From the NCBI GenBank assembly GCA_015484845.1, contig WFUT01000074.1, positions 19,388-83,387 of the forward strand: a stretch of DNA of 64,000 nt, in the 5' to 3' direction. The notes under the pieces are model-generated. The model searched no databases. It saw nothing but the letters and a program-made list of their open reading frames with translations, and was not told where the DNA came from. The stretch's first letter is position 1. Each line of letters starts with the position of its first letter. The position numbers and the translations under genes are program-made. This document shows, one piece after another, positions 37,226-55,328 of the stretch. This stretch comes from Desulfobulbaceae bacterium (GTDB lineage: Bacteria > Desulfobacterota > Desulfobulbia > Desulfobulbales > Desulfobulbaceae).

Positions 37226-39244
37226 TTATTGCTCCTTTGGCGCTCCGAATCCCGGCAGGGTGACCGGTTCCACCTTCTTGCGCGGCGGTTTTCCCGTGAT
37301 ATCGGTCACCCGCCGTACCACCCGGCTGCCGAGCGATTTGCCGCGGGCGGTCACACCCTTGATCAGGTAGTCGTCCAGGTCGATCTCCATGGAGTTATAG
37401 CGGGCCCGGGACGAAGGCACGAAGCTGATCCTGGCCCGCACGCCCTTCTCGCCCACGGCCAGCATCTGGATGATGGACCGCCTGTGCTCGGGAAAGAGCC
37501 TGTACTCGCGGTTAATGATGAACTTGGGCATCCGGAACCGCTTGACATAGCTCCTGTTTTCAAGGCCGTTGCGGTAGATGACGTTGAAAACAAGGTCCTT
37601 GCCCACCACGCCGAACCAGAGCAGGTCGCTGCCGACAAAGAACTTGTCCGCCGGATGGATCACCTTGTAGAGACCGTCCTTGAAGATGAGCAGCAGCCGG
37701 TCATACTCGGAGCAGGTCACTGCCAGGTCCTTTTTCTTGTCGGTCATGGTGATCTTGTGGCCCAGGAATCCTGACTCCCGGTTGTAGACCACCTTGATGT
37801 TTGCCAGGGCAGCGGCCCGGGCGTCCACCTCGTCGAACTGGCGCAGCTCGCTTTTGCGCGGGTACTGCTTGCCGTAGCGGTCGAGCAGGTCCTGGATATA
37901 GTTGACCGTGTAGCCTACCATGTCCTGCAGGTGCTTTTCGATGCGGGCGATATTCCTTTCAATGGCCCGGATCTCCTTCTGCTGGCGGTTGATGTCGTAG
38001 CGGGAGATGCGGCGGATCCTGATCTCCAGGAGCCGTTCCACGTCGTCCTTGCTCACCTTGCGGTCCAGTTCTTCGGCATAGGGCGCCAGGGCCTGGCGCA
38101 CCGTGGAGATCACGGCCCTGTAGTTGATCTTCTCCTCTATCTGCTTATACAGCCGCTCCTCGATAAAGATCTGCTCAAGTCTCCTGGCGTGCAGCTTTTC
38201 CTTCAGCCTCTCCAGTTCCATGCGCAGCTCCTGCTCCAGGAAGCCGACAAGGCGGTCGGTGTTGCGGCGCAGGACCTCTTCCACGGTGGGCTGGGCAGGC
38301 ATGTTGTCCTGGATCACCACCAGGCTGGGGGATACGCTCAGTTCGCAGTCAGTGAAGGCATAGAGGGCGTCGATGGTCTCCTCGGCATAGATGCCGCGGG
38401 CCAGCTTGATCTCTATCTCCACCTCCTCGGCCGTGTAGTCGTTGATGGAGGTGATGCGCAGCTTGCCGGCCCGGGTTGCCTTCTCCACGGAATCGATCAG
38501 GGCCTGGGTGGTCAGGTTGTAGGGCAGCTCGCGGATGACGATGGTCTTCTCGTCCCTCTCCTCGATCCTGGCCCGGCAGCGGATACGGCCGTTGCCGTGG
38601 TTGTAGTCGGTGACATCCACCAGGCCGCCGCGGGGAAAGTCGGGCAAGAGGGTGAACTCGCGGCCCTGGAGATAGTCGATCTGGGCCTGGAGCAGTTCGC
38701 AGAAGTTGTGCGGCATGATCTTGGTGGCCATGCCCACGGCGATCCCTTCTGCGCCCAGGAGCAGGAGCAGCGGCAACTTGGCCGGCAGGGTGACCGGCTC
38801 CTGCATGCGGCCGTCGTAGGAGTCGATGAACTCGGTAAGGTCCTTGTTGAACAGGGTCTCCCGGGCCAGGGGAGTCAGGCGGCACTCGATATACCGGGCG
38901 GCCGAGGCCTGGTCGCCGGTGAAGATGTTGCCGAAGTTCCCCTGCCGCTCGATGAGATAGCCCTTGTTGGCCAGGTTGACCAGGGCGGCGAAGATGGACT
39001 GGTCGCCGTGCGGATGCAGCTTCATGGTCTCGCCGACCACGTTGGCCACCTTGTGGAAGCGGCCGTCGTCCATGTTGTGCAGGGTCTGCAGGATGCGGCG
39101 CTGGACCGGTTTCAGGCCGTCGTCCACGTCCGGGATGGCCCGTTCCCGGATCACGTAGGAGGTGTAATCGAGGAAATTGGTGTCAAAGAGGCGGTGCAGC
39201 CTGCCCCTGCCCTGCCGCTTGCTCTCGTCTTGGCCGGAAGTCAT
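37226..39244 (-). CDS. parC: DNA topoisomerase IV subunit A (short GyrA/ParC paralogue)
   Basis: RAIPDVDDGLKPVQRRIL, HPHGD and catalytic AARYIECRL; 672 aa. Confidence 0.9.
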   Translation of the reverse strand: MTSGQDESKRQGRGRLHRLFDTNFLDYTSYVIRERAIPDVDDGLKPVQRRILQTLHNMDDGRFHKVANVVGETMKLHPHGDQSIFAALVNLANKGYLIERQGNFGNIFTGDQASAARYIECRLTPLARETLFNKDLTEFIDSYDGRMQEPVTLPAKLPLLLLLGAEGIAVGMATKIMPHNFCELLQAQIDYLQGREFTLLPDFPRGGLVDVTDYNHGNGRIRCRARIEERDEKTIVIRELPYNLTTQALIDSVEKATRAGKLRITSINDYTAEEVEIEIKLARGIYAEETIDALYAFTDCELSVSPSLVVIQDNMPAQPTVEEVLRRNTDRLVGFLEQELRMELERLKEKLHARRLEQIFIEERLYKQIEEKINYRAVISTVRQALAPYAEELDRKVSKDDVERLLEIRIRRISRYDINRQQKEIRAIERNIARIEKHLQDMVGYTVNYIQDLLDRYGKQYPRKSELRQFDEVDARAAALANIKVVYNRESGFLGHKITMTDKKKDLAVTCSEYDRLLLIFKDGLYKVIHPADKFFVGSDLLWFGVVGKDLVFNVIYRNGLENRSYVKRFRMPKFIINREYRLFPEHRRSIIQMLAVGEKGVRARISFVPSSRARYNSMEIDLDDYLIKGVTARGKSLGSRVVRRVTDITGKPPRKKVEPVTLPGFGAPKEQ

Positions 39245-39287
39245 GGAAGGATCGTGTTCAGGTTGGTGATGACCAGGGGCGCTCCGC

Positions 39288-41123
39288 TCATACCGGCCTC
39301 AGGGTCAGGTGGTCCATGATGTACTGCTTACGCTCGGGCGTGTTCTTGCCCATGTAGAACCTGAGTACCCGGCTGACCTCGCTGAGGCGGTCGATGCGCA
39401 CCTGCTTCAACCGCATGTCCGGGCCGATGAACTGCTTGAACTCGGGTGGCGAGATCTCGCCCAGCCCCTTGAACCGGGTCACTTCCACGCCCCGGTCTGC
39501 CCGGGAGCGGCCCTTGAGCTCCCTGATCGCCTCGGCCATCTCGTCGTCCGAGTAGCAGTAGCGGGTGATCTTCTTGTTGCGGACCCGGTAGATGGGCGTC
39601 TCCAGGATGTAGACATGGCCCAGCTTGACCAGGGGCTCGAAATAGTGGAGAAAAAAGGTGAGCAGCAGGTTGCGGATGTGCAGGCCGTCCACGTCGGCGT
39701 CCGTGGCCAGGATGACCTTGTCAAAGCGGAGGTTGGAGATGGACTCCTCGATGTCCAGGGCCCGCATCAGGGAATACATCTCCTCGTTCTTGTAGAGCAG
39801 GTCGAGCCGGTGGCCGAGCACGTTTAAGGGCTTGCCCTTGAGCGAGAACACCGCCTGGGTCATGGGATCGCGGGAAGAGACGATGGACCCGGCCGCCGAC
39901 TGGCCCTCGGTGATGAAGACCATGTTCTCACGGCCCTCCCTGGAGGGCTTGCGGCGGGAGGGGTGGTACTTGCAGTCCTTGAGCTGCGGGATCTTGAGCG
40001 CCACCTTCCGGGCCTTGACCTTGGCCTCGCGGCGCACCGACTGCAGCTCGCGGCGGACCCGCTCGTTGCGCTGCACCTTGTCCATGAGGATCTCGGCCGT
40101 ATCGGGAAACTTGTAGAGATGGGTGGACACGGCCTCACGCACTGCATTAACTATCCATGCCCTTATCTCCGTATTTCCGAGCTTATTCTTTGTCTGTGAT
40201 TCAAAGACCGGCTCCTGGACCTTGACCGCCAGGGTGCCGACGATCCCGTCGCGCACATCCTTGCCCGTGTACTTCTTGCCCGAGAATTCATTGACGCCCT
40301 TGAGGATCCCTTCCCGGAAGGCGGAGAGATGGGTGCCGCCCTCGCTGGTATAGGTGCCGTTGACAAAGGAGAAATAAGAGTCACCGTAGTCATCGGTGTG
40401 GGTGAAGGCGAATTCCAGCGTCTTGTCGGAGAGATGGATGGGATCATAGAGGCCGCGGCCATCCAGTTCCCGGTCGAGGAGGTCGAGCAGGCCGTTCTGG
40501 GAATAGTAACGCTCGCCGTTCATGTACAGGCTGAGGCCGGCATTGAGATAGGCGTAACGCCAGAGGCGCTGGTCAACATATTCCGGGTCAAAGCGAAAGC
40601 CGGGAAAGAGAGCAGCATCGGGCAGGAACTCGATCAGGGTGCCGTCTTTTTCGTCGGTCTCCCCCTCCTCTTCGCGCCTGAGCTCGCCATGTTCGAACAG
40701 GGCCTTCTTGAAACGGCCATCGCGGAAGGCGCAGACCGTGAAAACACTGGACAGGGCATTGACCGCCTTGGTGCCGACACCGTTCAGGCCCACGGAAAAC
40801 TGGAAGACCTCGGTATTGTACTTGGCGCCGGTGTTGATCACCGACACGCACTCCACCACCTTGCCAAGCGGTATGCCGCGGCCATAGTCGCGGACCCGGC
40901 AGCGACCCTCATCGTCGATGGCCACGTCAACACGCCTGCCAAAGCCCATGATGAACTCGTCCACCGCATTGTCGATCACCTCCTTGAGCAGGATATAGAT
41001 GCCGTCGTCCGGATGGGAGCCATTGCCGAGCCGGCCGATGTACATGCCAGGCCGCTTGCGGATGTGCTCAAGCGAACTTAAGGTCTTGATCTTGGATTCG
41101 TCGTACTGGTGGTGGGCAGACAC
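39288..41123 (-). CDS. parE: DNA topoisomerase IV subunit B
   Basis: EHIRKRPGMYIG, EVIDNAVDE, DYGRGIP, GLNGVGTKAVNALS, EGQSA, LKGKPLN and ATDADVDGLHI. Confidence 0.92.
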   Translation of the reverse strand: MSAHHQYDESKIKTLSSLEHIRKRPGMYIGRLGNGSHPDDGIYILLKEVIDNAVDEFIMGFGRRVDVAIDDEGRCRVRDYGRGIPLGKVVECVSVINTGAKYNTEVFQFSVGLNGVGTKAVNALSSVFTVCAFRDGRFKKALFEHGELRREEEGETDEKDGTLIEFLPDAALFPGFRFDPEYVDQRLWRYAYLNAGLSLYMNGERYYSQNGLLDLLDRELDGRGLYDPIHLSDKTLEFAFTHTDDYGDSYFSFVNGTYTSEGGTHLSAFREGILKGVNEFSGKKYTGKDVRDGIVGTLAVKVQEPVFESQTKNKLGNTEIRAWIVNAVREAVSTHLYKFPDTAEILMDKVQRNERVRRELQSVRREAKVKARKVALKIPQLKDCKYHPSRRKPSREGRENMVFITEGQSAAGSIVSSRDPMTQAVFSLKGKPLNVLGHRLDLLYKNEEMYSLMRALDIEESISNLRFDKVILATDADVDGLHIRNLLLTFFLHYFEPLVKLGHVYILETPIYRVRNKKITRYCYSDDEMAEAIRELKGRSRADRGVEVTRFKGLGEISPPEFKQFIGPDMRLKQVRIDRLSEVSRVLRFYMGKNTPERKQYIMDHLTLRPV

Positions 41124-41381
41124 GTTGTGCGTTACGGAAATTTAAAGTATTTTGAATTTTGAGCTCAGCATTCACACATTCACGCCGCACGGGCTTATTG
41201 ATGACCAGCCTTCAACCTGCATGCCGCACTTCGAAGGTGAAAATCCTGGTTCCCGGGCCGCGGTTTCTGACCCCTGATATCCAAATCCCGCGATTGGCAA
41301 TCCCGGAGTATGGGATGTAAGTGATACGGAAGCAGGTATATCTCTATAGTCTACCCAGTGGCAGAAATGAAGTCAAAAGAT

Positions 41382-42203
41382 ATGACCGCCACGGTCCTTG
41401 CCGTGGCCGGCTCCGACCCCACCGGCGGCGCCGGCATCCAGGCCGATATCAGGACCATGACCGACATCGGGGTCTACGGGGCAGCGGCCGTGACCTGCAT
41501 CACGGTGCAGAACAGCCGCGGCGTGCAGCAGGTCGTGCCCCTGGCGCCCGGCTTGGTGGCCGAACAGGCGCGGGCCGTTCTCGCCGACCACCATGTCACC
41601 CACATCAAGATCGGCATGATCGGCACCAGGGAGATCGGCGCGGCACTGGGCAGGGTCCTGGCGGAATTCTCCGGCGACGTGATCTTTGACCCTGTCCTGG
41701 CGGCGACCACGGGCGAACAGCTCACGGATCGGGCCGGCCTGGCGGTGATCCGCGGCGCCCTTCTTGCCCGGACCACGATCCTCACCCCCAACCTGCCGGA
41801 GCTGGCCCTGCTCGCCGGCCACGAACAGGATGGTCCTGCCGGTGCCCCCCTGGCCATGGCCCGGGAACTGCTGGCCCGCTCTCCCCGCCTGCGCGCCGTC
41901 CTGGTCAAGGGCGGTCATGGCGGGGACGGTATCCTCACCGATTACCTTGTCCGCAGGCAGCAGACCCTTGCCGAGCAGCACCCGCGCATCGACACCGTCA
42001 ACAGCCACGGCACGGGCTGCATCCTCTCCTCGGCCTTTGCCGCCTATCTCTGCCAGGGCCTTGACGATGCCGCCGCCTTTGCCGCCAGCGTCCACTACCT
42101 GCAGCGCTTACTGGCAGAGAACGCGGCCAGGCGGATCGTCCGGTCCCCCGGCGGCCGCGGCCCCCTGTTCCATGCCCATCCACGGGACAGGGGACCGCAA
42201 TAA
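41382..42203 (+). CDS. thiD: Hydroxymethylpyrimidine/phosphomethylpyrimidine kinase
   Basis: VAGSDPTGGAGIQADI, IKIGM, FDPV, LTPNLPE, VKGGH and SHGTGCILSSA. Start uncertain (41358/41367/41382). Confidence 0.92.
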   Translation: MTATVLAVAGSDPTGGAGIQADIRTMTDIGVYGAAAVTCITVQNSRGVQQVVPLAPGLVAEQARAVLADHHVTHIKIGMIGTREIGAALGRVLAEFSGDVIFDPVLAATTGEQLTDRAGLAVIRGALLARTTILTPNLPELALLAGHEQDGPAGAPLAMARELLARSPRLRAVLVKGGHGGDGILTDYLVRRQQTLAEQHPRIDTVNSHGTGCILSSAFAAYLCQGLDDAAAFAASVHYLQRLLAENAARRIVRSPGGRGPLFHAHPRDRGPQ

Positions 42204-42437: not shown

Positions 42438-42758
42438 CTATCCGGGCAGGAGTTCCTTCTCCAGCCAGGCCAGGTATTCCTTGTTGCCCTCCACCACGGG
42501 TATGGCCAGGATCTCCGGGACATCGTAGGGATGCTGTCCGCGGATCAGGATCTGCAGCCCCTCGAACAGGTCCCGCCGGGACTTCATGCAGCAGAGGTAC
42601 TCGTCCGCCTGCTCCAGGGTCCCCTGCCACCGATAGCGGGAATGGCACCTGCTGATCTGGACACAGGCGGCAAGGCGGCTGCCAAGAACCTCTTCCGCTA
42701 TCTTCTCCGCCTGCTCCCTGGTCTCCACCGTGGTGACAACCTGGATATACTCTGTCAT
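42438..42758 (-). CDS. cutA: Divalent-cation tolerance protein CutA
   Basis: RLAACVQI, SRYRWQG and HPYDVPEI...GNKEYLAWL. Start ATG 42758. Confidence 0.93.
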   Translation of the reverse strand: MTEYIQVVTTVETREQAEKIAEEVLGSRLAACVQISRCHSRYRWQGTLEQADEYLCCMKSRRDLFEGLQILIRGQHPYDVPEILAIPVVEGNKEYLAWLEKELLPG

Positions 42759-43015
42759 CTGCCTTCCCCCTCTCCTGTCAGGATCAACTGTCCGGGTCGC
42801 ATGGTGCCCGGTTTCCGCCCCGCTCCCCATGGCGAGACGACACCGGATCCCTGCAGCATACCATGGACGGCGGATGATCTCAATCCTGCCCGCCAGCCGG
42901 GGCAATCTTCCTGTCCATGCTGCCGGATGTTGTCAGGGCGCGGCAGGTGTGCTAGGCTTTGTCCTGCCCGGGAAAAAGAGAGGCGGCAGGCAAAAACAGC
43001 AGACGGTGCAATCGC

Positions 43016-44338
43016 ATGCAGAACATCGTTATCATCGGCGGCGGCGCAGCCGGCATGAGTGCAGCATCCCGAATCAGGAGACTGCAGCCCGGCTGGAAGA
43101 TCACGGTCCTGGAGGCCAGCGGCTGGGTCAGCCATGCGCCCTGTGGCATTCCCTACGTGGTCGAGGGCATCAGCGAGCTGGACAGGTTGATGCACTACAC
43201 GCCGGAATTTTTCATCCGTGAGCGCAACATCGACCTGCACATCCACGCCAGGGTGACGGCCGTGCACCAGGGCGAGGTGGTGGCGCAGGAGAAGGATGGG
43301 GAAAAACGCTACCCCTGGGACCAGCTCCTGTTCGCCACCGGCGCCGTTCCCCGCCGCCCCCCTGTCCCCGGGACAGGGCTTGCCGGCGTCTTCACGGCAG
43401 ACCTGCCCCCGGACGCGGGCATCATCCGGCGGTACATGGAGGACAACGGGGTCAACAAGGTGGTGATCATCGGCACCGGTTACGTGGCCCTGGAGATGGC
43501 CGAGGCCTTTGTGGTCCGCGGAATGCACGTGACCCTGGTTGGCCGCAGTGACCGGGTCCTGCGCAGGACCCTGGACCGGGAGATCACGGATGTGGTCGGG
43601 AAGCGGCTGGCCGACGAACTCGACCTCCGCCTGCAGGAGGCGACCCGGGCGATCGAGGGAACATCCAGGGTGGAGCAGGTGGTCACCGACCGGCAGACCT
43701 ATCCGGCGGACATGGTCATCCTGGCCACCGGCATCAGGCCGGAGACCACCCTGGCCGAGCAACTGGGCCTCAAGCTCGGTGCCGGCGGCGCGATCGGGAC
43801 CGACGACAGGATGCGGACCAGCCGGACCGGCGTCTACGCGGCCGGCGACGTGGCCGAGTGCCACCACCTCCTGACCGGCAAAAAGACCTGGATCGCCCTG
43901 GCGCCGACAGGCAACAAGATGGGATTCGTGGCAGGCTCCAACATGGCCGGCCACGAGGTCCGCTTCCCCGGCGTGGTCGGCACCGCTGTCACCCGGTTCA
44001 TGGACATGGAGATCGGCCGCACCGGCCTGGGCGAGGAAGAGGCCAGGCAGGCCGGGTTTTCGGTAAAAAGCGGCGTGATCAGGACCGCAACCGGGCCCGG
44101 CTATTACCCGGGCCACGGCGAGATATGGCTCAAGGGCATTGCCGAGCAGGGCAGCGGCCGGCTCCTGGGCCTGCAGGCCGTGGGCAAGAGGGTGCTCGCC
44201 AGGATAGACACCTTTGCCCTTGCCCTGCAGCAGGGCTGCACGATCCGCGACCTGTTCTTCACCGACCTGGCCTATGCACCGCCCTTTGCCCCGGTCTGGG
44301 ATCCCCTGGTGACCCTGGCCCGGGTATTGAAATTCTGA
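43016..44338 (+). CDS. cdr: CoA-disulfide reductase / CoA-dependent NAD(P)H:sulfur oxidoreductase (Thermococcales Nsr-like)
   Basis: [10 protein letters not shown], single redox Cys in [19 protein letters not shown] and C-terminal [27 protein letters not shown]. Start ATG 43016. Confidence 0.85.
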
Positions 44339-44394
44339 AACCTCAATCCCGCGACCGGCAGTCCCCTGCCTCCTGTTTTCCGAGGGTGACCGCA

Positions 44395-45231
44395 ATGCTT
44401 TTTGCCGTTGATGTTGGCAATTCCCACACCGTAAGCGGCCTGTTCAGGCATGACCGGCTCGTCGCCCACTGGCGCCTCAAGTCGGACCGGGACAGGACCG
44501 CCGACGAGCTGGCCATCCGCTACCACGCCCTGTTCCAGATGGCGGGGATCGATGCCGGCGCCATAACCGGCTTTATCGTCTCCTCGGTGGTGCCAACCCT
44601 GGAGACGTGCTGGCTGGACTATGCAGACAAATACCTGGGCAGCCGGCTGACCGGCCCGCCCCTGCGGGTCAACCACACCACGGCCACCGGCATCACCGTG
44701 GCCACGGACAACCCGGCCGAGGTGGGGGCGGACCGGATCGTCAACGCGGTGGCGGCCTGGGACATCCTGCGGCAGGCCCTGATCGTCATCGACTTTGGCA
44801 CCGCCATCACCTTTGACTGCGTCAATGAACAAAGGCGCTACGTGGGCGGCACCATCCACCCGGGCATCGGCATCTCGCTCGACGCCCTGGCCGGCCGCAC
44901 CGCCAAGCTGCCGCGGGTGGACATCAACGCCACGCCGAAACAGGTCATCGGCACCAGCACGGTGAGCGCCATCCGCTCCGGCATGCTCTACGGCTTTGGC
45001 GGCCTGGTGGACCGGATGGTGGAGATCCTGGCCAGGGAGCTGGCGCCGGAACAGGACCGGGTGCCCACGGTGGCCACCGGCGGCATGGCCCACCTGGTGG
45101 CGCCGTTTGCCGCGGCCATCGACCGCATCGAGCCGGACCTGACCTTAAACGGCCTGCGCCTGATCCATGCCATGAACCGGAACCGACAACACGACGTCCA
45201 TGCCAGTGCCCCCTGCCACCAGTCTTCATGA
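44395..45231 (+). CDS. coaX: Type III pantothenate kinase
   Basis: AVDVGNSHT, SSVVP, VGADR, IDFGTAITFD, GGTIHPG and VATGG. Confidence 0.95.
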   Translation: MLFAVDVGNSHTVSGLFRHDRLVAHWRLKSDRDRTADELAIRYHALFQMAGIDAGAITGFIVSSVVPTLETCWLDYADKYLGSRLTGPPLRVNHTTATGITVATDNPAEVGADRIVNAVAAWDILRQALIVIDFGTAITFDCVNEQRRYVGGTIHPGIGISLDALAGRTAKLPRVDINATPKQVIGTSTVSAIRSGMLYGFGGLVDRMVEILARELAPEQDRVPTVATGGMAHLVAPFAAAIDRIEPDLTLNGLRLIHAMNRNRQHDVHASAPCHQSS

Positions 45232-45238
45232 GACGGCC

Positions 45239-46192
45239 ATGACCAGACCGCGGCCTGTCCTGCTGCCACCGCGCCTGCGGCCCGGTGACACCATCGGCGT
45301 CATCCTGCCGGCCGGGCCGGTGCGGGACCACGCCAGGGCCGAAAAGGGCATGTCCCTCCTGCACCAGATGGGCTACCGGCTCCGCCTGCCGGCGACCGGA
45401 CCGGCCGATGCCGACTATCTCGCCGCCCCGGACGAGGTCCGCCTCCGTACCCTGCACGCCCTCTGGGCCGACGAGGAGGTCAGGGCCCTGATGGCCATGC
45501 GCGGCGGCTACGGCTGCCTGCGCATCGTCGACCGGCTGGACATGGAATTTTTCCGCCGCCATCCCAAGTGGCTGGTCGGCTTCAGCGACCTGACCGTGCT
45601 CCATGCCGCCCTCAACCGCGATGCCGGCCTGGTCACCATGCACGGCCCCATGGTCGCCACCCTGGGGCGGACGGCAAGGGAGGACCTGCAGCGGCTCTTC
45701 TCGCTGCTCGCCGGGGAACCGGCCGGCCTGCACGACACCGCGGCAATGGAGATCCTGCGTCCCGGCATTCGCCGGGGCCGCCTGTGCGGCGGCAACCTCA
45801 CCTGCCTGCTCTCCCTCCTGGGCACACCGTGGGAACCCGCCTGGCAGGACGCCATTATCCTGCTCGAAGACACCGGCGAGCCCATGTACCGGCTCGATCG
45901 CATGCTCACCCAGCTGGCGCAGGCGGGACGGCTGCAGCAGGCAGCCGGCCTGCTGCTCGGCAGCTTCGATCATCCCTCCGGCGACACCCTTGAGACCATC
46001 CGCCTCCAGGAACAGGTCTGGCAGCGGGTCCTGGAGCTGACCCGGGATGCCGACTTGCCGGTCTGGGCCAATGTTCCCCTTGGCCACGGTCAACGCAACG
46101 CGGCCCTGCCGCTCGGCATGGAAGCCGAGATGAACAGCCTGACCGGCACCCTCACCCTGCTCCCGCATTCGGTGCACCGAGTTCACGAATAG
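45239..46192 (+). CDS. ldcA: LD-carboxypeptidase (peptidase S66)
   Basis: RGGYG, GFSD (Ser), GGNL, LLED (Glu) and LGHG (His). Start ATG 45239. Confidence 0.9.
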   Translation: MTRPRPVLLPPRLRPGDTIGVILPAGPVRDHARAEKGMSLLHQMGYRLRLPATGPADADYLAAPDEVRLRTLHALWADEEVRALMAMRGGYGCLRIVDRLDMEFFRRHPKWLVGFSDLTVLHAALNRDAGLVTMHGPMVATLGRTAREDLQRLFSLLAGEPAGLHDTAAMEILRPGIRRGRLCGGNLTCLLSLLGTPWEPAWQDAIILLEDTGEPMYRLDRMLTQLAQAGRLQQAAGLLLGSFDHPSGDTLETIRLQEQVWQRVLELTRDADLPVWANVPLGHGQRNAALPLGMEAEMNSLTGTLTLLPHSVHRVHE

Positions 46193-47765: not shown

Positions 47766-48089
47766 GCCGGAAAAAGATTTCCATTCCGTGATTCTCCTTG
47801 ACAAGCAGGGGAAAATATCGCATTAGGTCAACCGCCGCCAGCCATGGTCGCGGCCCGACCGCCAGGTCAGGCCCCCATGACCGACGACAATGACCCTGCC
47901 GGCACACCACCGGAAGGTCATTCTCGTGGGCATTCCCCCACGGATCTCCACGGCCATGCCGCCGTGGTCAACGGCCCCGGATCCAAACCATCCCAGCAGG
48001 CCAGCAAGAGATGTTTACACCGCCCGGTTCCGGCCATCCGGCCATCCGGAACCGTGTCGTCTCGTCTTTTTTTGGGACAACGGAGTGAT

Positions 48090-50042
48090 ATGGAAACCTT
48101 TTTCCTGGCAATCTCGTTCATCATCGCCGCGGGGGTCCTGCCCTTTCTCTTCCTGCGCAGTTCCAGGCTCATGAGAGGATCGGCCGTCATCATGACCGCG
48201 GCCGGCGGCCTCACCGGCCTCCTCTTCGCGGCCCGGGCCATGACCACCGCCACGCCGCCCGCTGCCACCTTCCTCCTCCCGGGCGGGCTCCGGGTTCTCA
48301 TGCAGGTGGACGCGGTCTCGGCCTTCTTCCTGCTGCCCATATTCCTGGTCGCCCCGGTTGCCGCCCTGTACAGTTTCCATTACACCAGGGCGCAGGGCCC
48401 GCGCGCCGCGGCAGGCTATCTCTTCTTTTCCCTCCTCACCGCCGCCATGGCCGCGGTCGTCTGCGCCGCCGACATCACCGGCTTCATCATCGCCTGGGAA
48501 CTGATGTCGATCTCGTCCTTCTTTCTCGTGATACACGATTTCGGCAAAAAGGAGAGCCGCCGGGCCGGCTACATCTACCTTCTCTTTGCCCAGGCCGGGG
48601 CCATGGTCATCTTCGCCACCTTTGCCCTCGCCTACGGCAAAAGCGGCTCCCTCGATTTTGCCTCCTTTGCAACCATGCCCGCGCAGGCCCGGATCCTCGT
48701 CTTTGTGCTCGCCTTCATCGGCTTCGGCTCCAAGGCGGGCATCATTCCCCTGCACACCTGGCTCCCCCATGCCCATCCCGCGGCCGAGAGCCATGTCTCC
48801 GCCCTGATGAGCGGAGTGATGATAAAGATGGGGATATACGGCATGGTCCGCTTCTACGCCATACTCCGGCCGCCGGGTCCGGGTTGCGCAATGCTGCTGA
48901 TCCTCACCGGCGCCGTGACCGGGGTTCTCGGCGTGGTCCTCGCCCTGGGCCAGCACGACCTGAAGCGACTGCTCGCCTATCACAGCGTGGAGAACATCGG
49001 TATCATCGTCCTCGGCCTGGGAATCGGCATGCTCGGCGCAGCCACCGGCCATCCGCTGATGGCCCTCCTGGGCTTTGCCGGCGGCCTGCTCCATGTCCTC
49101 AACCACGCCCTGTTCAAGTCCCTGCTCTTCATGGGCGCAGGCAGCGTGCAGCGGGGCGCCGCCACCCTGAACATCGAGCAACTCGGCGGCCTGATGAAGA
49201 GGATGCCGCTCTCCGGCACCTGCTTCCTGGCCGGGAGCCTGGCGATCTGCGGCCTGCCGCCGTTCAACGGTTTTGTCAGTGAATTTCTCGTCTACAGCGG
49301 CGGGTTCCAGGGAGTGGCAAACAGCGAGGCGCAGATGTTTACCGCCCTGGCAGCGGTGATCTCGCTGGCAGTGATCGGTGGCCTGGCCGTGGCCTGCTTT
49401 ACCAAGGTGGTGGGCGTGGTCTTTCTTGGCGAGCCCAGGAGCGAGAAGGCAAAAATAGCGCCCCCCGCGGGCCGCTGCATGCAGGCGGCAATGGTTCTTC
49501 TCGCCGTCGCCTGCCTTGGTATCGGCCTGGGAGCCCCCTGGTTCATCGCCCTTGCCCGCAGGGCGGCAGGGCCACTTCTTGCAACGCCGACGCCCATGCC
49601 CGCGCCGCTGGACACCGCCGCGTACGCGATTGCCCTTGCGGCCGCCGGTTTCCTGCTCCTGCTTGCCATCCTCGCCGCTGGCCGCGGTCTGCTTGCCCAC
49701 GGCCGGCCGGCCGAATCCGCCACCTGGGGCTGCGGCTTCTCCAGCCCGACGCCGAGAATGCAGTACACCGGTTCTTCCTTTGCCGCCGAGATTGTCGGTT
49801 TCTACCGTCCTTTTGTGATCATCCGCAGGGATTTTTCAGGAATCCACGGCCTGTTTCCACCCCTGTCCTCTTTCAGGAGCCACACAATAGACCTTGTCGA
49901 GCTGGGGATAAGGCGGTGGCTGGCCCGCTCGGTCATGGCCCTGACCGGAAAGATACGCTGGCTGCAGCACGGTCACATCCAGCTCTACATCGCCTACATC
50001 TTCTTCGCCATGCTCGGGCTCCTGCTCTGGCTGATGGTATAG
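48090..50042 (+). CDS. ehrA: Ehr/Hyf complex antiporter-like membrane subunit (HyfB-like)
   Basis: AWELMSISSF, GFGSKAGIIPLHTWLPHAHPAAESHVSALMSG, LKRLLAYHSVEN and CGLPPFNGFVSE. Start ATG 48090. Confidence 0.9.
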   Translation: METFFLAISFIIAAGVLPFLFLRSSRLMRGSAVIMTAAGGLTGLLFAARAMTTATPPAATFLLPGGLRVLMQVDAVSAFFLLPIFLVAPVAALYSFHYTRAQGPRAAAGYLFFSLLTAAMAAVVCAADITGFIIAWELMSISSFFLVIHDFGKKESRRAGYIYLLFAQAGAMVIFATFALAYGKSGSLDFASFATMPAQARILVFVLAFIGFGSKAGIIPLHTWLPHAHPAAESHVSALMSGVMIKMGIYGMVRFYAILRPPGPGCAMLLILTGAVTGVLGVVLALGQHDLKRLLAYHSVENIGIIVLGLGIGMLGAATGHPLMALLGFAGGLLHVLNHALFKSLLFMGAGSVQRGAATLNIEQLGGLMKRMPLSGTCFLAGSLAICGLPPFNGFVSEFLVYSGGFQGVANSEAQMFTALAAVISLAVIGGLAVACFTKVVGVVFLGEPRSEKAKIAPPAGRCMQAAMVLLAVACLGIGLGAPWFIALARRAAGPLLATPTPMPAPLDTAAYAIALAAAGFLLLLAILAAGRGLLAHGRPAESATWGCGFSSPTPRMQYTGSSFAAEIVGFYRPFVIIRRDFSGIHGLFPPLSSFRSHTIDLVELGIRRWLARSVMALTGKIRWLQHGHIQLYIAYIFFAMLGLLLWLMV

Positions 50043-50052
50043 GGAGGCAGCA

Positions 50053-50961
50053 ATGCTCAAATCCACACTGATCATGCTCGCGGCCATGGCCGCCGCGCCG
50101 GTGCTGGCGGCCATCACCGGCCGGGTCAAGGCCTGGTTGGCCGGCCGCCGGGGACCGGACTGGACCCTCAACTACGCCACCCTGGCCAAGCTGCTCAGGA
50201 AGACACCGGTCTACAGCCGCTCGACCACCTACGTCTTCCGCCTGGGACCGCTGGTGGGCCTGGCGACCATCCTTGCCGCCCTGGCCTTCCTTCCCATTGC
50301 CGGCCGGCCACCCATCTTCTCCTTTGCCGGAGACGTTGTCTTTGTCTTCTACCTCCTCGGCCTGGGCCGTTTTTTCGTGGTGGCCGCGGCCCTGGACACG
50401 GCCTCTCCCTTCGAGGGCATGGGCGCGGCCCGGGAGGCACTGTTCGGGACACTGGCCGAGGCCACTGTCTTCATGGTCCTCTTTCTTCTCCAGCAGACCC
50501 ATGGCGGCATGAGCCTTGCCACCTACCTCGCCGCCACAACGGCAGGCCCGGGCATGAACGGGGCCGCCCTCGTCCTTGCGGTCATTGCCCTGTTCATGAT
50601 CCTGCTCACCGAGAACTCCCGGGTGCCCGTGGACGATCCGACCACTCACCTCGAGCTCACCATGATCCACGAGGTCATGATCCTGGACCACTCGGGCCCG
50701 GACCTTGCCATGATCGAGATGGGCGGCTGGCTGAAGCTCCTCTTCTATGCCACCTTCATCGCCGACATCGCCTGCCCGTTTCGCGGTGGCCCAGGAGACT
50801 ATCTCCTCTACATCCTTGCCCTGCTTGTCATCTATGGCGGCATCGGCCTGGTCGAATCGATCACCGCCCGTTTCAGGATGAGCCTGGTGCCCAAGTTCAT
50901 CCTCACCTCGTTCGCCCTTGCCTTTTTCGCCCTGATATTCACCATGGAGATGCCGGGATGA
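50053..50961 (+). CDS. ehrB: Ehr/Hyf complex NuoH-like subunit (HyfC-like)
   Basis: GRRGP, FEGMGAARE, ENSRVPVDDPTTHLELTMIHEVMILDHSG. Confidence 0.9.
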   Translation: MLKSTLIMLAAMAAAPVLAAITGRVKAWLAGRRGPDWTLNYATLAKLLRKTPVYSRSTTYVFRLGPLVGLATILAALAFLPIAGRPPIFSFAGDVVFVFYLLGLGRFFVVAAALDTASPFEGMGAAREALFGTLAEATVFMVLFLLQQTHGGMSLATYLAATTAGPGMNGAALVLAVIALFMILLTENSRVPVDDPTTHLELTMIHEVMILDHSGPDLAMIEMGGWLKLLFYATFIADIACPFRGGPGDYLLYILALLVIYGGIGLVESITARFRMSLVPKFILTSFALAFFALIFTMEMPG

Positions 50962-51608
50962 GCCACTGCGCCGATATCTGTCTTGCCCTGATCTTTCTCT
51001 CCGTCCTCCTGGGGATGGCAGCCAACCGCCTGATGGAGCTGGTCAAGATCATGGCCTTCCAGGGGACCATCGTCTCCATCCTCCCTGTCCTGCTCGAGGC
51101 CGGACAGCGGGACGCCGCCGGCCTCGGCTTCATGGCGGTGATGCTGACGGTGAAGGGCCTGGTCATGCCCCTGGCCCTTTATGCCGCGATCAAGAAAGTG
51201 GCCAACCTTCGCGAGGTGGAGCCCTTTGTCGGCTACCGTGCCTCGATCTTCAGCGCCCTGGCCCTGGTGCTTGCCGCCGGGTTCATCGACCGGACGCTGG
51301 CCCCCTTCATGCCGCCGACCCACGTGATGCTCATGCCTGCCAGCATCGCCACCATCGGCGCTGGTTTTTTCCTGATGATGGCACGGCGCAAGGCCATCAC
51401 CCAGGTCATCGGCTACCTGATGCTGGAGAACGGTATCTACCTCACCGGTATCGCCCTTGCCGGCGAAACCCACTCCCAGCGGTTACTCGAGTTCGGCGTA
51501 CTGCTCGATCTCCTTGCCGGTGTAATGATAATGGGGATAATCATCAACCGAATCAACCAGACCTTTGACGACGTCGATACCGGCATGCTCGGAAGCCTCA
51601 GGGATTGA
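50958..51608 (+). CDS. ehrC: Ehr/Hyf complex HyfE-like membrane subunit
   Basis: QVIGYLMLENGIY and EFGVLLDL; ATGA overlap. Confidence 0.88.
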   Translation: MSHCADICLALIFLSVLLGMAANRLMELVKIMAFQGTIVSILPVLLEAGQRDAAGLGFMAVMLTVKGLVMPLALYAAIKKVANLREVEPFVGYRASIFSALALVLAAGFIDRTLAPFMPPTHVMLMPASIATIGAGFFLMMARRKAITQVIGYLMLENGIYLTGIALAGETHSQRLLEFGVLLDLLAGVMIMGIIINRINQTFDDVDTGMLGSLRD

Positions 51609-51639
51609 CGCCGCAGCCAGGCACAACGGAAACAACAAC

Positions 51640-53070
51640 ATGCTCGAATCAGTGATCTTCATCCCGCTGCTGGCCGGCCTTGCCGCCTTCTTCCTGCCGC
51701 CACGGCCAGGCAGGGCGCTGCTGGTAGCAGCCGGTCTCCTTCACGCGGCCGCGGTGACCGCGATCCTCTGCGGCGCGGGCAACGCCCTCTGGCCGCAGTA
51801 CTTCTCCGTCACCGCCATGGGTGCGCTGGTCCTGGCCCTGACCTCGTTCCTGTACCTGATGACGGCCATCTACGCCGTCTCCTACATGGCAACCGTGGAG
51901 CTGCACGCCGAACCGGCATGCAACGGCGCCATGCTCCTCTTTCTCGCGGCCATGAGCATGGCCGCCATCGCCGACCACGTAATCGTGCTGTGGATCGCCA
52001 TCGAGGCCACCACCCTCACCTCGGCACCGCTCATCCTTCTGCACCGTTCCAAGGGGGCCCTCGAGGCGGCATGGAAATACGTCCTCATCTGCTCGGTGGG
52101 CATTGCCCTGGCCCTGCTCTCGGCCTTTTTCCTGGTCCTGGCCATGAACCTCGGCCGGGTGCACACCGCCCTGGGATATACGGCCCTGACCCGGGCCGCG
52201 CGCAGCCTCGATCCCGTCTGGCTGAAGGCCGCCTTTATCTTCTCCCTGATCGGCTATGGCACCAAGATGGGGCTGGCCCCCATGCACACCTGGCTGCCGG
52301 ATGCCCACAGCGAAGCGGTCAGCCCGGCCTCGGCCCTCCTCTCCGGCGCCCTGCTGAACTGCGCCTTCCTCGGGATATACAAGGGCCACGCCCTCCTGAC
52401 CGCGGCCGGGCTCGGTGACTTTTCCGGCCGGATCATGATCTTCTTCGGCCTGGCCTCGATCATCGTCGCCGGGGCCTTTATCATGCACCAGAACGACTAC
52501 AAGCGGATGCTGGCCTACTCGAGCATCGAGAACATGGGGATCATAGCCTTTGGCAGTGGCATCGGCGGACTTGCGGCCGCCGGCGCTGTCATCCACATGA
52601 TCCATCATTCCCTGGTCAAGTCGAGCCTGTTCCTTTCCTCCGGCAACATTCTCCTGGGATATGGCAGCAAGAAGATCAACGGGACCGGCCGGATGATGAC
52701 GAGACTTCCGGCGACCGCCACGGCATTCTTCGCCGGTTTCGCAGGCATATCAGGGATGCCGCCCTTTGGCCTGGTGGTGAGCGAGATCCTCATCACCGCG
52801 GGCGCCATGCGGGCCGGCCGGCCGATTGCGGCCGCGATCTTCCTTGCCGGCCTGCTCCTGGTCTTCAGCGGCGCAAGCCGCCATCTCATCCGCATGACCT
52901 TTGGCCCGGGCCACGGCGGAGAACTGCTGGTGGAAGAGAACACGCTCAGGGTCCTGCCCTCCTATGTCCTGCTCGCCGCGTCCATTACACTGACCTTCTG
53001 GATGCCCGGCATCATGACCGGCATCGTCAACCAGGCCGCAACCCTGATCGGAGGTGGATTCCATGGCTGA
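51640..53070 (+). CDS. ehrD: Ehr/Hyf complex antiporter-like subunit (HyfF-like)
   Basis: WIAIEATTL, EAAWKY, GYGTKMGLAPMHTWLPDAHSEA and KRMLAYSSIENMG. Start ATG 51640. Confidence 0.9.
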   Translation: MLESVIFIPLLAGLAAFFLPPRPGRALLVAAGLLHAAAVTAILCGAGNALWPQYFSVTAMGALVLALTSFLYLMTAIYAVSYMATVELHAEPACNGAMLLFLAAMSMAAIADHVIVLWIAIEATTLTSAPLILLHRSKGALEAAWKYVLICSVGIALALLSAFFLVLAMNLGRVHTALGYTALTRAARSLDPVWLKAAFIFSLIGYGTKMGLAPMHTWLPDAHSEAVSPASALLSGALLNCAFLGIYKGHALLTAAGLGDFSGRIMIFFGLASIIVAGAFIMHQNDYKRMLAYSSIENMGIIAFGSGIGGLAAAGAVIHMIHHSLVKSSLFLSSGNILLGYGSKKINGTGRMMTRLPATATAFFAGFAGISGMPPFGLVVSEILITAGAMRAGRPIAAAIFLAGLLLVFSGASRHLIRMTFGPGHGGELLVEENTLRVLPSYVLLAASITLTFWMPGIMTGIVNQAATLIGGGFHG

Positions 53071-54568
53071 TTTCATTGCGGTGCACAACGGCCGGCCCGT
53101 GGCCATGGCGGCAGTTCCGCTCCTGGACTTTTCCTCTTTCCGCGAGCGCCTGCTGGAACTGTGCCGTTTCGGCTGCGTGGTGCAGTACTTCGCCCTGGCC
53201 ACCGAACAGGGATTGTGTGCCGTTGCGGTGATCCGCCTCGAGGACCAGCTCCTCGCCGGTCGTGCCCTGCTGCCGCAACAGTTTCCTTCCCTGACCCGGG
53301 AACGGCCCCGCTTCCACATGTTCGAACGGGAGATGGCCGAGCAGTACGGTGTGCTCCCCCAGGGACACCCCTGGCTCAAGCCCCTGCGCTACCACTGCAA
53401 CTGGCGGGGCGTGGATGACGTGTTCGGCAACGACTACAACGAGGACATTCCCGGCCGCTATCCCTGGTACCGGGTGGAGGGCGACGAGATCCACGAGGTG
53501 GCGGTGGGGCCGGTGCACGCCGGGATCATTGAACCGGGCCATTTCCGCTTCCAGTGCAACGGCGAGACCGTCCTCCACCTGGAGATCGGCCACGGCTACC
53601 AGCACCGGGGCGTGGAACCACTGCTCTGCAGGGTCCCGGAGAAACGGCGACCATTCATCGCCGAGGCGGTTGCCGGTGACACCGGCATGGCCGGCAGTCT
53701 GTCGTACGCCCAGGCGGTGGAAGGCCTGGCCGGACTCGAGGTCGGCACAGGGGCACAGGCGGTCCGCACCATCGCGGTGGAACTGGAGCGCCTCGCCAAC
53801 CACGTCGGCGACCTCGGCGCCCTGGCCGGCGACGTGGCCTTTACCCCGCCGGCCGCGTTTTTCGGCCGCATGCGGGGAGAGTTCCTCAACCTCCTTCTCC
53901 TGCTCTCGGGCAACCGGTTCGGCCGCGGCCTCATCCGGCCGGGGGGAATCGCCTTTCCCGTCGATGTTGCGGCACTGGCCGCCATCGCCGCCAAGGTGCA
54001 GGAACTGAGGCTGGAACTGGTCCGCTGCGTGGACCTGCTCCTGTCAGCCCACACGGTACTGTCGCGGTTCGAGAACTGCGGCATCGTGTCCAGGGAGGCG
54101 GCCGAATGCCTGGGCATGGTGGGACCGGCAGGAAGGGCGTCGTGGATGGCCTATGACGCGCGAATCCACTTTCCAACCGAACGATACCCCGACCTCCCGG
54201 CCGCAAGGATGGAACGGCCCACCGGCGATGTCCTTGCCCGGGCAAGGGTCAGGGCCGGCGAGATCATGCACAGCCTCGACTGTGTCGAGATCCTGGCCCG
54301 GGAAGGGCAAGACGTCGCGGCCACGGAGAACCGGGTCCCCGGGCTTGCCCCCGATTCAATGGTGGTCACTGTCAACGAGGCATGGCGGGGGGAGCTGTCC
54401 CATTGCCTGGTCACCGGCCCCGGCGGGGAGATCATCCGCTACAAGATCAAGGATCCGTCCTTCCACAACTGGGCCGGGCTGGCCATGGCCCTCCGGGACG
54501 AGGGGATCAGTGATTTCCCGGTCAACAACAAGAGCTTCAACCTTTCCTACTGCGGGATGGACCTCTGA
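53063..54568 (+). CDS. ehrL: Ehr large subunit (NuoC/NuoD-like, HyfG homologue lacking NiFe ligands)
   Basis: NuoC-like FERE...HPWLKP, VGPVHAGIIEPGHFRF, GYQHRGVE and EAWRGE, KIKDPSF. No RxCxxC, and the C-terminus is DFPVNNKSFNLSYCGMDL rather than DPCxxC. Confidence 0.9.
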   Translation: MADFIAVHNGRPVAMAAVPLLDFSSFRERLLELCRFGCVVQYFALATEQGLCAVAVIRLEDQLLAGRALLPQQFPSLTRERPRFHMFEREMAEQYGVLPQGHPWLKPLRYHCNWRGVDDVFGNDYNEDIPGRYPWYRVEGDEIHEVAVGPVHAGIIEPGHFRFQCNGETVLHLEIGHGYQHRGVEPLLCRVPEKRRPFIAEAVAGDTGMAGSLSYAQAVEGLAGLEVGTGAQAVRTIAVELERLANHVGDLGALAGDVAFTPPAAFFGRMRGEFLNLLLLLSGNRFGRGLIRPGGIAFPVDVAALAAIAAKVQELRLELVRCVDLLLSAHTVLSRFENCGIVSREAAECLGMVGPAGRASWMAYDARIHFPTERYPDLPAARMERPTGDVLARARVRAGEIMHSLDCVEILAREGQDVAATENRVPGLAPDSMVVTVNEAWRGELSHCLVTGPGGEIIRYKIKDPSFHNWAGLAMALRDEGISDFPVNNKSFNLSYCGMDL

Positions 54569-54581
54569 GACGGAGGCACTG

Positions 54582-55328
54582 ATGCTGAAGGTACTGCGAA
54601 CCAGGCTGGAACAGGGATACAGGACAATGCGCTGGCCGCGCCAGGAGCTGGTGCTTCCCGCCCCCTACAGGGGCCGGCCGATGATAAACCGCGACTGTGA
54701 CCCCGAGACGGTCCGCGCCTGCGCCCGGGCCTGTCCCCAGGACGCCATCGACGCGGACCGCAAAAGCGTGGACATGGGCAGGTGCCTCTTCTGCGGGACC
54801 TGCGCCCGGATATCGAAGGAGAGATTTGTCCGTTTTACCAGGGACTTTGACCTGGGCAGCGCCAGCCGGTCCGGCCTTGTCTGCGACGGCGGCGACCCGG
54901 CCGGGCTCGCCGACCATGCAAAAGAACATTTCCGGAAGCTGTTCGGCCGTTCCCTGCAGCTGCGGCAGGTGTCAGCCGGCGGCTGCAACGCCTGCGAGGC
55001 CGAGATCAATGTCCTCGCCACCCCGGCATACGATCTTTCCCGTTTCGGGATCAGCTACGTCGCCTCACCCCGGCATGCCGACGGTATCCACGTCACCGGC
55101 CCGGTAACCCGCAACATGCGCGCCGCTCTCCTTGCCACCTTCGAGGCTGTGCCGGAACCAAGGGTCGTGATCGCCTCCGGGGCCTGCGCCATATCCGGGG
55201 GACCGTTCACCGGCAGCCCGGAGGTCTGCCAGGGCCTGGACACGATCCTGCCCGTGGACCTCTATATTCCCGGCTGCCCGCCCCATCCCATGACCACCCT
55301 CAAGGCCCTGCTGGATTTTTTCAGGTAA
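54582..55328 (+). CDS. ehrS: Ehr small subunit (NuoB-like) fused to an N-terminal ferredoxin domain
   Basis: CLFCGTC ferredoxin motif, then GGCNACEAE, SPRHADG, GACA and PGCPPHP. Start ATG 54582 with a GGAGG RBS. Confidence 0.9.
   Translation: MLKVLRTRLEQGYRTMRWPRQELVLPAPYRGRPMINRDCDPETVRACARACPQDAIDADRKSVDMGRCLFCGTCARISKERFVRFTRDFDLGSASRSGLVCDGGDPAGLADHAKEHFRKLFGRSLQLRQVSAGGCNACEAEINVLATPAYDLSRFGISYVASPRHADGIHVTGPVTRNMRAALLATFEAVPEPRVVIASGACAISGGPFTGSPEVCQGLDTILPVDLYIPGCPPHPMTTLKALLDFFR

Follow-up and report, generated by a model that had tools for sequence, protein, structure and literature searches.

A 64-kb window of a Desulfobulbaceae genome (64,000 nt of contig WFUT01000074.1, assembly GCA_015484845.1) encodes a 440-residue flavoprotein next to coaX, the gene for type III pantothenate kinase. 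The best overall explanation, to which we assign a probability of roughly 0.8, is that this protein is a coenzyme A (CoA)-dependent reductase of the Pyrococcus/Thermococcus type, acquired in one old transfer from the Thermococci lineage, with an accessory role in sulfane sulfur and CoA-thiol chemistry. Sequence comparisons strongly support movement of the gene from archaea, namely the Thermococci lineage, into bacteria. Close orthologues occur in two genera of one family, labeled g1 (the host genus) and g9 (the second carrier genus); the enzyme is otherwise almost confined to hyperthermophilic archaea. In g1, the gene occupies a site that is empty in relatives. Literature searches returned no report of this archaea-to-bacteria transfer.

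The reductase and its family

By sequence, domain architecture and phylogeny, the protein is a bacterial member of the PF1186/PH0572 family of CoA-disulfide reductases (CoADR/NSR). It contains the Pfam domains Pyr_redox_2 (PF07992, 200 bits), Pyr_redox (PF00070, 73 bits) and Pyr_redox_dim (PF02852, 64 bits). No Pfam match to a rhodanese tail (PF00581) is found in the reductase, which ends at residue 440. Cys43 lies within the motif SHAPCG and does not vary among the 72 sequences compared. The remaining cysteines are C282 and C408, and a CxxxxC pair is absent. A preliminary description of this DNA, made from the letters alone, had reported the same open reading frame (ORF), the single redox Cys43, the missing rhodanese tail and a series of family motifs; translation and Pfam analysis confirm all of these. 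The blocks quoted there correspond to residues 37–51 (15 residues), 124–134 (11 residues), 295–309 (15 residues) and 317–334 (18 residues), the motif EIWLKG to 369–374, and the C-terminal 27-mer to 414–440. GTGYVA and GRSDR occupy residues 153–158 and 176–180.

The resemblance to the Pyrococcus enzyme noted in the preliminary description holds up when computed. In a phmmer search of the PDB, the best matches are the P. horikoshii CoADR structures (PhCoADR; 4fx9 and 3kd9), which align without gaps over residues 3–440 at 590–593 bits, and BLASTP gives 59% identity to the P. horikoshii sequence. Other classes score far lower: the next is an NADH oxidase at 321 bits, followed by the NPSR/CoA-persulfide reductases at about 228 bits, the Npx structures at about 198 bits (versus 592 for PhCoADR) and the S. 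aureus CoADR at 168 bits.

Phylogeny and direction of transfer

Maximum-likelihood trees were calculated in two ways, quickly for 142 sequences and more carefully for 95 sequences under LG+C20+F+G4 with posterior mean site frequencies (PMSF), and the two agree. The bacterial reductases form a single clade (support 100/100). This clade is nested inside the Thermococci, which it joins at 100/97; the preliminary description had named a position in or beside the Thermococcales as support for a transfer. Inside this group there are three branches: the bacteria, a small Thermococci lineage of metagenome-assembled genomes (MAGs; L029/P0089), and the crown Thermococcaceae. The next outgroups are the Archaeoglobi together with a deep Thermococci MAG (97/99), then Vulcanisaeta, Sulfolobales and Thermocladium. 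The outermost archaeal-type branches are Thermofilum, Bathyarchaeota and another Thermocladium, as named from cluster members. The archaeal-type clade as a whole (60 rows) is supported at 100/99, and the sampled paralogues of the host order (L004–L008) fall outside it, as does the Dehalococcoidia cluster P0139. The bacterial clade holds both GC-rich genes (g1) and mid-GC genes (g9), and a compositional artefact is therefore unlikely.

The crown Thermococcaceae are monophyletic to the exclusion of the bacteria (95/96), and the donor lay outside the crown. This monophyly, with the bacteria branching at sister level and not from within the crown, lends some weight to passage in the reverse direction, from an ancestor within the Desulfobulbaceae to the Thermococci. 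We consider that direction very improbable, and the topology as a whole speaks against it: the named successive outgroups are all archaeal (Archaeoglobi, the deep Thermococci MAG, Thermoproteota and Bathyarchaeota), the second Thermococci lineage attaches at the same node, and the bacterial distribution is tiny.

Distribution of orthologues

A search of 5.8 billion proteins returned three tiers. A few proteins match at 81–84% identity, some of them titled Desulfobulbus sp. or Thermodesulfobacteriota bacterium B35. The second tier, at 67–70%, consists of proteins titled as Desulfobulbaceae, Desulfobulbus or Deltaproteobacteria MAGs. Straight after these come the CoADRs of Thermococcus, Pyrococcus and Palaeococcus at 58–64%. 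We also scanned one genome per species, 185,579 species in all, for two signature peptides. Of 73 loci found, six belong to Desulfobulbaceae-type bacteria and the remainder are archaeal (Thermococci, Archaeoglobi, Vulcanisaeta, Sulfolobales and Thermoproteati).

Within the host's own order the gene is rare. Among 40 relatives of the host, the orthologue (81–83% identity) is confined to two other genomes of the host genus; all other homologues are paralogues at 31–41% identity, usually in frames of 560–650 residues. A survey of the whole order, covering 401 genomes in 83 genera with an orthologue threshold of E ≤ 1e-130, found orthologues in seven genomes and two genera. All seven belong to one family: three of the three g1 genomes and four of the 13 g9 genomes.

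This distribution bears on whether the gene is instead a vertically inherited bacterial CoADR or NADH oxidase that merely resembles the archaeal enzymes. Its composition and codon usage are fully like those of the host, and pyridine nucleotide-disulfide oxidoreductase (PNDOR) paralogues are frequent in the order; both points favor vertical descent. However, the orthologue is absent from 394 of the 401 genomes, its insertion site is empty in relatives, and the other homologues in the order are distant, those sampled lying outside the archaeal-type clade. When the archaeal-type rows were forced into a clade without the bacteria, the approximately unbiased (AU) test rejected the constraint (delta lnL 118, p-AU 0.00046). 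Vertical inheritance is thus effectively refuted by the distribution, the tree, the AU test and the empty site. The same four lines of evidence uphold the horizontal transfer between archaea and bacteria first proposed in the preliminary description. The transfer is clean and well bounded: its donor lineage can be identified, and the empty site is exact.

Several carrier Desulfobulbaceae MAGs share title prefixes with Thermococcus MAGs: T2_, HyVt- and S14x (L009/L035, L013/L024 and L017/L026). For T2, the carrier MAG and the Thermococcus MAG come from the same metagenome assembly, placing the recipient and donor lineages in the same sample. Some donor-lineage and recipient MAGs therefore stem from one metagenome assembly.

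Insertion site and the coaX neighborhood

Throughout the family, as well as in several further families of the order, the genes run thiD, cutA (on the minus strand), coaX, LD-carboxypeptidase and a conserved hypothetical protein of 217 residues (Table 1). coaX itself is present in all 25 relatives searched and is vertically inherited. In relatives that lack the reductase at this place, cutA and coaX are separated by roughly 100–250 nt, and in g1 the reductase sits exactly in this gap.

Table 1. Positions of the reductase and neighboring features in the 64-kb window.
Feature	Coordinates	Strand	Remarks
Type IIA topoisomerase pair	37226–41123	−	Upstream of thiD; 672-aa protein with DNA_topoisoIV domain only and 611-aa GyrB-like protein
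thiD (phosphomethylpyrimidine kinase)	41358–42203	+	Native synteny block
Conserved start region of a 142-aa ORF	42227 to ~42430	+	thiD–cutA interval
cutA	42438–42905	−	CutA1 domain at ORF residues 56–150; true start probably further in; left flank of insertion
Intergenic region, divergent cutA/reductase	42906–43015		Left edge of insertion
CoADR/NSR-type reductase gene	43016–44338	+	440 aa, then stop; predicted PF1186/PH0572-type, archaeal-type, single-Cys
Reductase–coaX spacer, 56 nt	44339–44394		Weak 5-bp hairpin and T-rich tail at 44357–44370, chance-level
coaX, native type III pantothenate kinase	44395–45231	+	PF03309, 225.6 bits; right flank of insertion
LD-carboxypeptidase	45200–46192	+	Native synteny block, downstream of coaX
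Six-gene membrane complex	47844–55328	+	Resembles group-4 [NiFe] hydrogenase

The preliminary description had given the distance from the reductase to the kinase gene as 56 nt, which is exact, and had suggested that CoA supply is genetically linked to the reductase. This suggestion is not supported. coaX belongs to a native block found across the family, and the reductase lies beside it in one genus only, at variable spacing: 56 nt in the host, 498 nt in L009 and 237 nt in L010. In two of the g9 carriers, G328 and G308, the cutA–coaX junction is intact, and in g9 the reductase lies beside a P-type ATPase, a PilZ protein and FeoB. The two genes are neighbors because the reductase gene landed in the native cutA|coaX gap. 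The adjacency is real, but it is not conserved, and the linkage looks accidental. A scan of the plus strand of the divergent region upstream of the reductase (42906–43015) found no sigma-70-like promoter, and in the 56-nt spacer the chance-level hairpin was the sole signal (Table 1).

In L010 (Thermodesulfobacteriota bacterium B35), a DDE transposase (PF13701; 1595–2926) is found upstream of the reductase in place of thiD–cutA; the left side of the block is rearranged in this genome.

Using a two-gene tree of coaX and LD-carboxypeptidase as a proxy for the species tree, g1 and g9 fall in one subclade (97/97) and may or may not be sisters. A single gain followed by losses and relocation, or a gain followed by transfer within the family, both fit this tree and cannot be separated by it. 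We suggest that a single transfer from archaea brought the gene into a Desulfobulbaceae ancestor. It now occupies two different chromosomal sites in two genera, the one in g1 lying between the native cutA and coaX.

Age of the transfer

The reductase gene has a GC content of 0.670 and a third-position GC content (GC3) of 0.875, at the 85th percentile of host ORFs of at least 300 residues (mean GC3 0.754), and its synonymous codon usage lies at the 71st percentile of the host. The g9 copies follow the composition of their own, lower-GC hosts. These values agree with the earlier proposal that the gene had been ameliorated to host GC. dN/dS is 0.19–0.26 within g1 and 0.13–0.19 in other pairs, and a repeat search found no target-site duplications or terminal repeats around the reductase. 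Given the host-like composition, the low dN/dS and the lack of insertion scars, the transfer is an old one, and purifying selection maintains the gene. That an archaeal fragment was misassembled or misbinned into a bacterial MAG has a negligible chance of being correct: the host genome is in 233 contigs and assemblies such as T2 yielded both Thermococcus and carrier MAGs, but the gene is flanked by native bacterial genes of host GC within the window, and the same arrangement recurs on a MAG contig of 65 kb and on a contig of 1.17 Mb from the six-contig genome titled Thermodesulfobacteriota bacterium B35.

Active site, channel and cofactor pattern

The residues Cys43, Tyr61 (PhCoADR Tyr66), Arg70 (PhCoADR Arg75) and Tyr363 are conserved in the reductase. 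The second dinucleotide-binding fold had been described as an NADPH-type GxGxxA/GRSxR pattern. This reading is borne out, and the reductase shares the pattern, as GTGYxA and GRSxR, with 20 of 29 Thermococcaceae.

PhCoADR has a narrow CoA channel lined by Tyr65, Tyr66, Pro67, Arg75 and His367 (PMC6026696). The position of Tyr65 is His in the reductase, as it is in 28 of the 29 Thermococcaceae. Pro67, invariant in the Thermococcaceae, is variable in the bacteria and is Thr here. A conspicuous change is at His367, which corresponds to Gly362 in the reductase. This position is Gly, Ala or Ser in all 21 bacterial copies and His in all 47 sequences from the Thermococci and main-group Archaeoglobi. 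H367G is one of four channel-widening mutations introduced into PhCoADR, and the quadruple mutant acts on CoA disulfide with a kcat four times as high and is more active at low temperature (PMC6026696). By analogy, the channel of the bacterial enzymes may be somewhat wider, and their substrate or temperature profile may be shifted. The bacterial clade carries one of these four engineered changes in natural form, and it offers a ready-made test of whether substrate choice in CoA-dependent persulfide and disulfide reductases is set by the shape of the channel.

The Archaeoglobi (L070–L072 and P0134) have two paralogues, the second on a long branch (0.76). In this second copy Arg or Lys replaces His367 and Ala or Thr stands in place of Tyr65, suggesting a different channel.

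The reductase contains 2% Lys and 10% Arg, compared with 7% and 5% in the Pyrococcus/Thermococcus type. We tried the IVYWREL fraction as an index of thermophily of the enzyme. The g1 copies score as high as the Thermococcaceae, yet the index is uninformative because it is driven by Arg replacing Lys in a GC-rich host. The host itself is roughly mesophilic, as a crude index of proteome composition suggests.

Function

Characterized members of the family are CoA-dependent. PF1186 and TK1299 are strictly CoA-dependent NAD(P)H:S0 reductases (PMC9431562), and PhCoADR favors CoA per- and polysulfides, and NADPH (PMC6026696). We infer the substrates, cofactor preference and physiological role of the reductase as follows. 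The protein would be a homodimeric FAD enzyme of the PF1186/PH0572/TK1299 type, in which the single redox Cys43 carries bound CoA. NAD(P)H, probably NADPH, would reduce the Cys-S-S-CoA mixed disulfide via FAD. The enzyme would then release H2S and CoA-SH by reducing CoA persulfide, CoA polysulfide and polysulfide, with CoA disulfide as a poorer substrate. Its most likely role would be in cytoplasmic sulfane sulfur handling and CoA-thiol homeostasis in a habitat rich in sulfide and polysulfide, and not as a core step of respiration.

The host is a dissimilatory sulfur bacterium, since its dsrA (583 bits) and aprA (952 bits) both score above curated cut-offs. A native CoADR-family paralogue of 575 residues is also present in the host (G000 C20:16504–17853, minus strand), with a CDAGTRS tail and a weak rhodanese match (21.1 bits). 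This protein is a candidate native persulfide reductase, judging from its sequence, and most relatives hold paralogue frames of similar length. If the long paralogues are of the NPSR type, a CoA-dependent persulfide reductase was already present in the lineage.

Several points weigh against the overall explanation. The NCBIfam equivalog model TIGR03385 has a cut-off of 578.8 bits, and the reductase reaches 493.0; other bacterial copies score 493–514 bits, and the Thermococcales enzymes score 596–601, above the cut-off. Annotations are split between ‘CoA-disulfide reductase’ and ‘FAD-dependent oxidoreductase’ because the bacterial copies fall below this threshold; it excludes bacterial orthologues, so that some carry only the latter label. 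His367 is replaced in all bacterial copies, which may have brought a shift in substrate preference, such as one towards CoA disulfide. The authors of the PhCoADR study warn that sequence is a poor predictor of PNDOR substrates (PMC6026696). In the tree, the branching order of the bacterial clade, L029/P0089 and the Thermococcaceae is a trichotomy, and four basal representatives (P0143, P0144, P0184 and P0185) have no taxon name. The group constrained in the AU test was chosen after the tree was seen.

A more specific scenario extends the favored explanation. After the gene left a hyperthermophile, the channel would have widened for lower temperature, through replacement of His367 by Gly, Ala or Ser and relaxation at Pro67. 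A few vent-associated Desulfobulbaceae would thereby have gained an NADPH-driven CoA-persulfide/CoA-disulfide reductase that materially affects their handling of zero-valent sulfur. Taken as a whole, we regard this scenario as doubtful.

Two other functional readings are less probable still. The first is that the enzyme is a dissimilatory cytoplasmic reductase of S0 and polysulfide, which supplies the reductive branch of sulfur disproportionation and is genetically coupled to CoA supply via coaX. In the presence of CoA, family members do turn S0 and polysulfide into H2S in vitro (PMC9431562, PMC6026696). Thermococcales induce Nsr on S0 (PMC6981617), the genes dsrA and aprA are present in the host, and the sample prefixes of some carrier MAGs are also those of Thermococcus MAGs. 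The distribution argues otherwise. The gene is missing from 81 of the 83 sampled genera and so cannot represent a general step of disproportionation; even in g9 it is present in four of 13 genomes. The adjacency to coaX results from insertion into a native block, in one genus and at variable spacing. Moreover, the longer paralogue with its weak rhodanese-like tail is native to the host, with similar frames in most relatives, and a P. furiosus strain deleted for Nsr reportedly grows on S0 without an obvious defect (PMC6981617), which makes it doubtful that S0 reduction requires NSR in vivo. A core role in disproportionation is unlikely because of the narrow distribution, the possible native enzyme and the lack of a reported defect in the P. 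furiosus deletion. An accessory role in sulfane sulfur handling or CoA-thiol homeostasis is the better guess, and the transfer by itself gives no explanation of sulfur disproportionation.

The second reading, which we find equally hard to favor, is that the protein functions mainly as an NAD(P)H oxidase or a peroxidase-type enzyme of oxygen defence, with CoA and sulfur chemistry secondary. Anaerobes at vent interfaces do encounter O2, the close family member TK1299 has NAD(P)H oxidase activity (PMC9431562), and NADH oxidases and peroxidases are the next-best structural classes. However, PF1186 has no oxygen-related activity (PMC9431562), and in PhCoADR the reducing equivalents are retained by NAD(P)H, as is typical for enzymes that lack O2-reducing activity (PMC6026696). 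The reductase itself scores 240.7 bits against the model for H2O-forming NADH oxidases (NF046103), for which the cut-off is 600.

Other features of the window

Downstream of the synteny block lies the six-gene membrane complex. Its subunits include two Proton_antipo_M proteins, a NuoH-like protein, a large subunit of fused 30kDa/49kDa type and a small, NuoB-like subunit whose N-terminus resembles ferredoxin. The 504-residue large subunit has no CxxC motif at all and therefore cannot bind NiFe; from its sequence, the complex looks like an Ehr/Mbx-like non-hydrogenase. We considered it as an MBS/MBX partner for the reductase. Its best PDB matches are HycE (141.6 bits) and MBH (120.8 bits), nearer than MBS (60.6 bits), and we draw no link to the reductase.

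In the thiD–cutA interval, the first ~65 residues of the 142-residue ORF are conserved at 43–59% identity by tblastn, at the same place in many relatives, upstream of the 3' end of cutA. This ORF has no Pfam match, and its start region may be a small conserved gene. The topoisomerase pair upstream of thiD is very strongly conserved, with 89–96% identity of the B subunit in relatives.

Comparison with known systems

The closest known systems are PH0572 (4FX9, 3KD9), PF1186 and TK1299. The reductase resembles them in length, in its three domains and gap-free alignment, and in membership of the same clade (100/97), with 59% identity to the P. horikoshii protein and 58–64% to Thermococcales enzymes generally. 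It shares SHAPCG, the channel residues Tyr66 and Arg75, the C-terminal LARVLKF and, with most Thermococcus, the NADPH-type GxGxxA/GRSxR pattern. It differs in its bacterial, roughly mesophilic host, in having Gly for His367, a variable Pro67 position and Lys largely replaced by Arg, in scoring below the TIGR03385 cut-off, and in that no clear MBS-type membrane complex adjoins it.

The Npsr/CoADR-RHD enzymes of Shewanella (3NTA), Enterococcus (8A56) and Archaeoglobus (6PFZ) belong, like the reductase, to the single-Cys, CoA-bearing class of PNDORs that reduce persulfide and polysulfide. Unlike the reductase, they carry a C-terminal rhodanese domain, and they match it at only ~228–290 bits and 33–39% identity. 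Their architecture may fit the 575-residue paralogue of the host.

Thermotoga maritima NSR (TM0379) and TK1481 are likewise cytoplasmic, CoA-stimulated NAD(P)H reductases of polysulfide and S0, and TM0379 comes from a bacterium that lives beside Thermococcales. They belong to another subfamily, 34% identical to PF1186 (PMC9431562), and are not strictly CoA-dependent.

The CoADRs of S. aureus and B. anthracis (1YQZ, 3CGB) share single-Cys CoADR chemistry with the reductase. They fall in another clade (168–259 bits) and are true CoA-disulfide reductases, from Firmicutes that use CoA as their main thiol. Their substrate channel is wide, a property that the His367-to-Gly change in the reductase may partly mimic.

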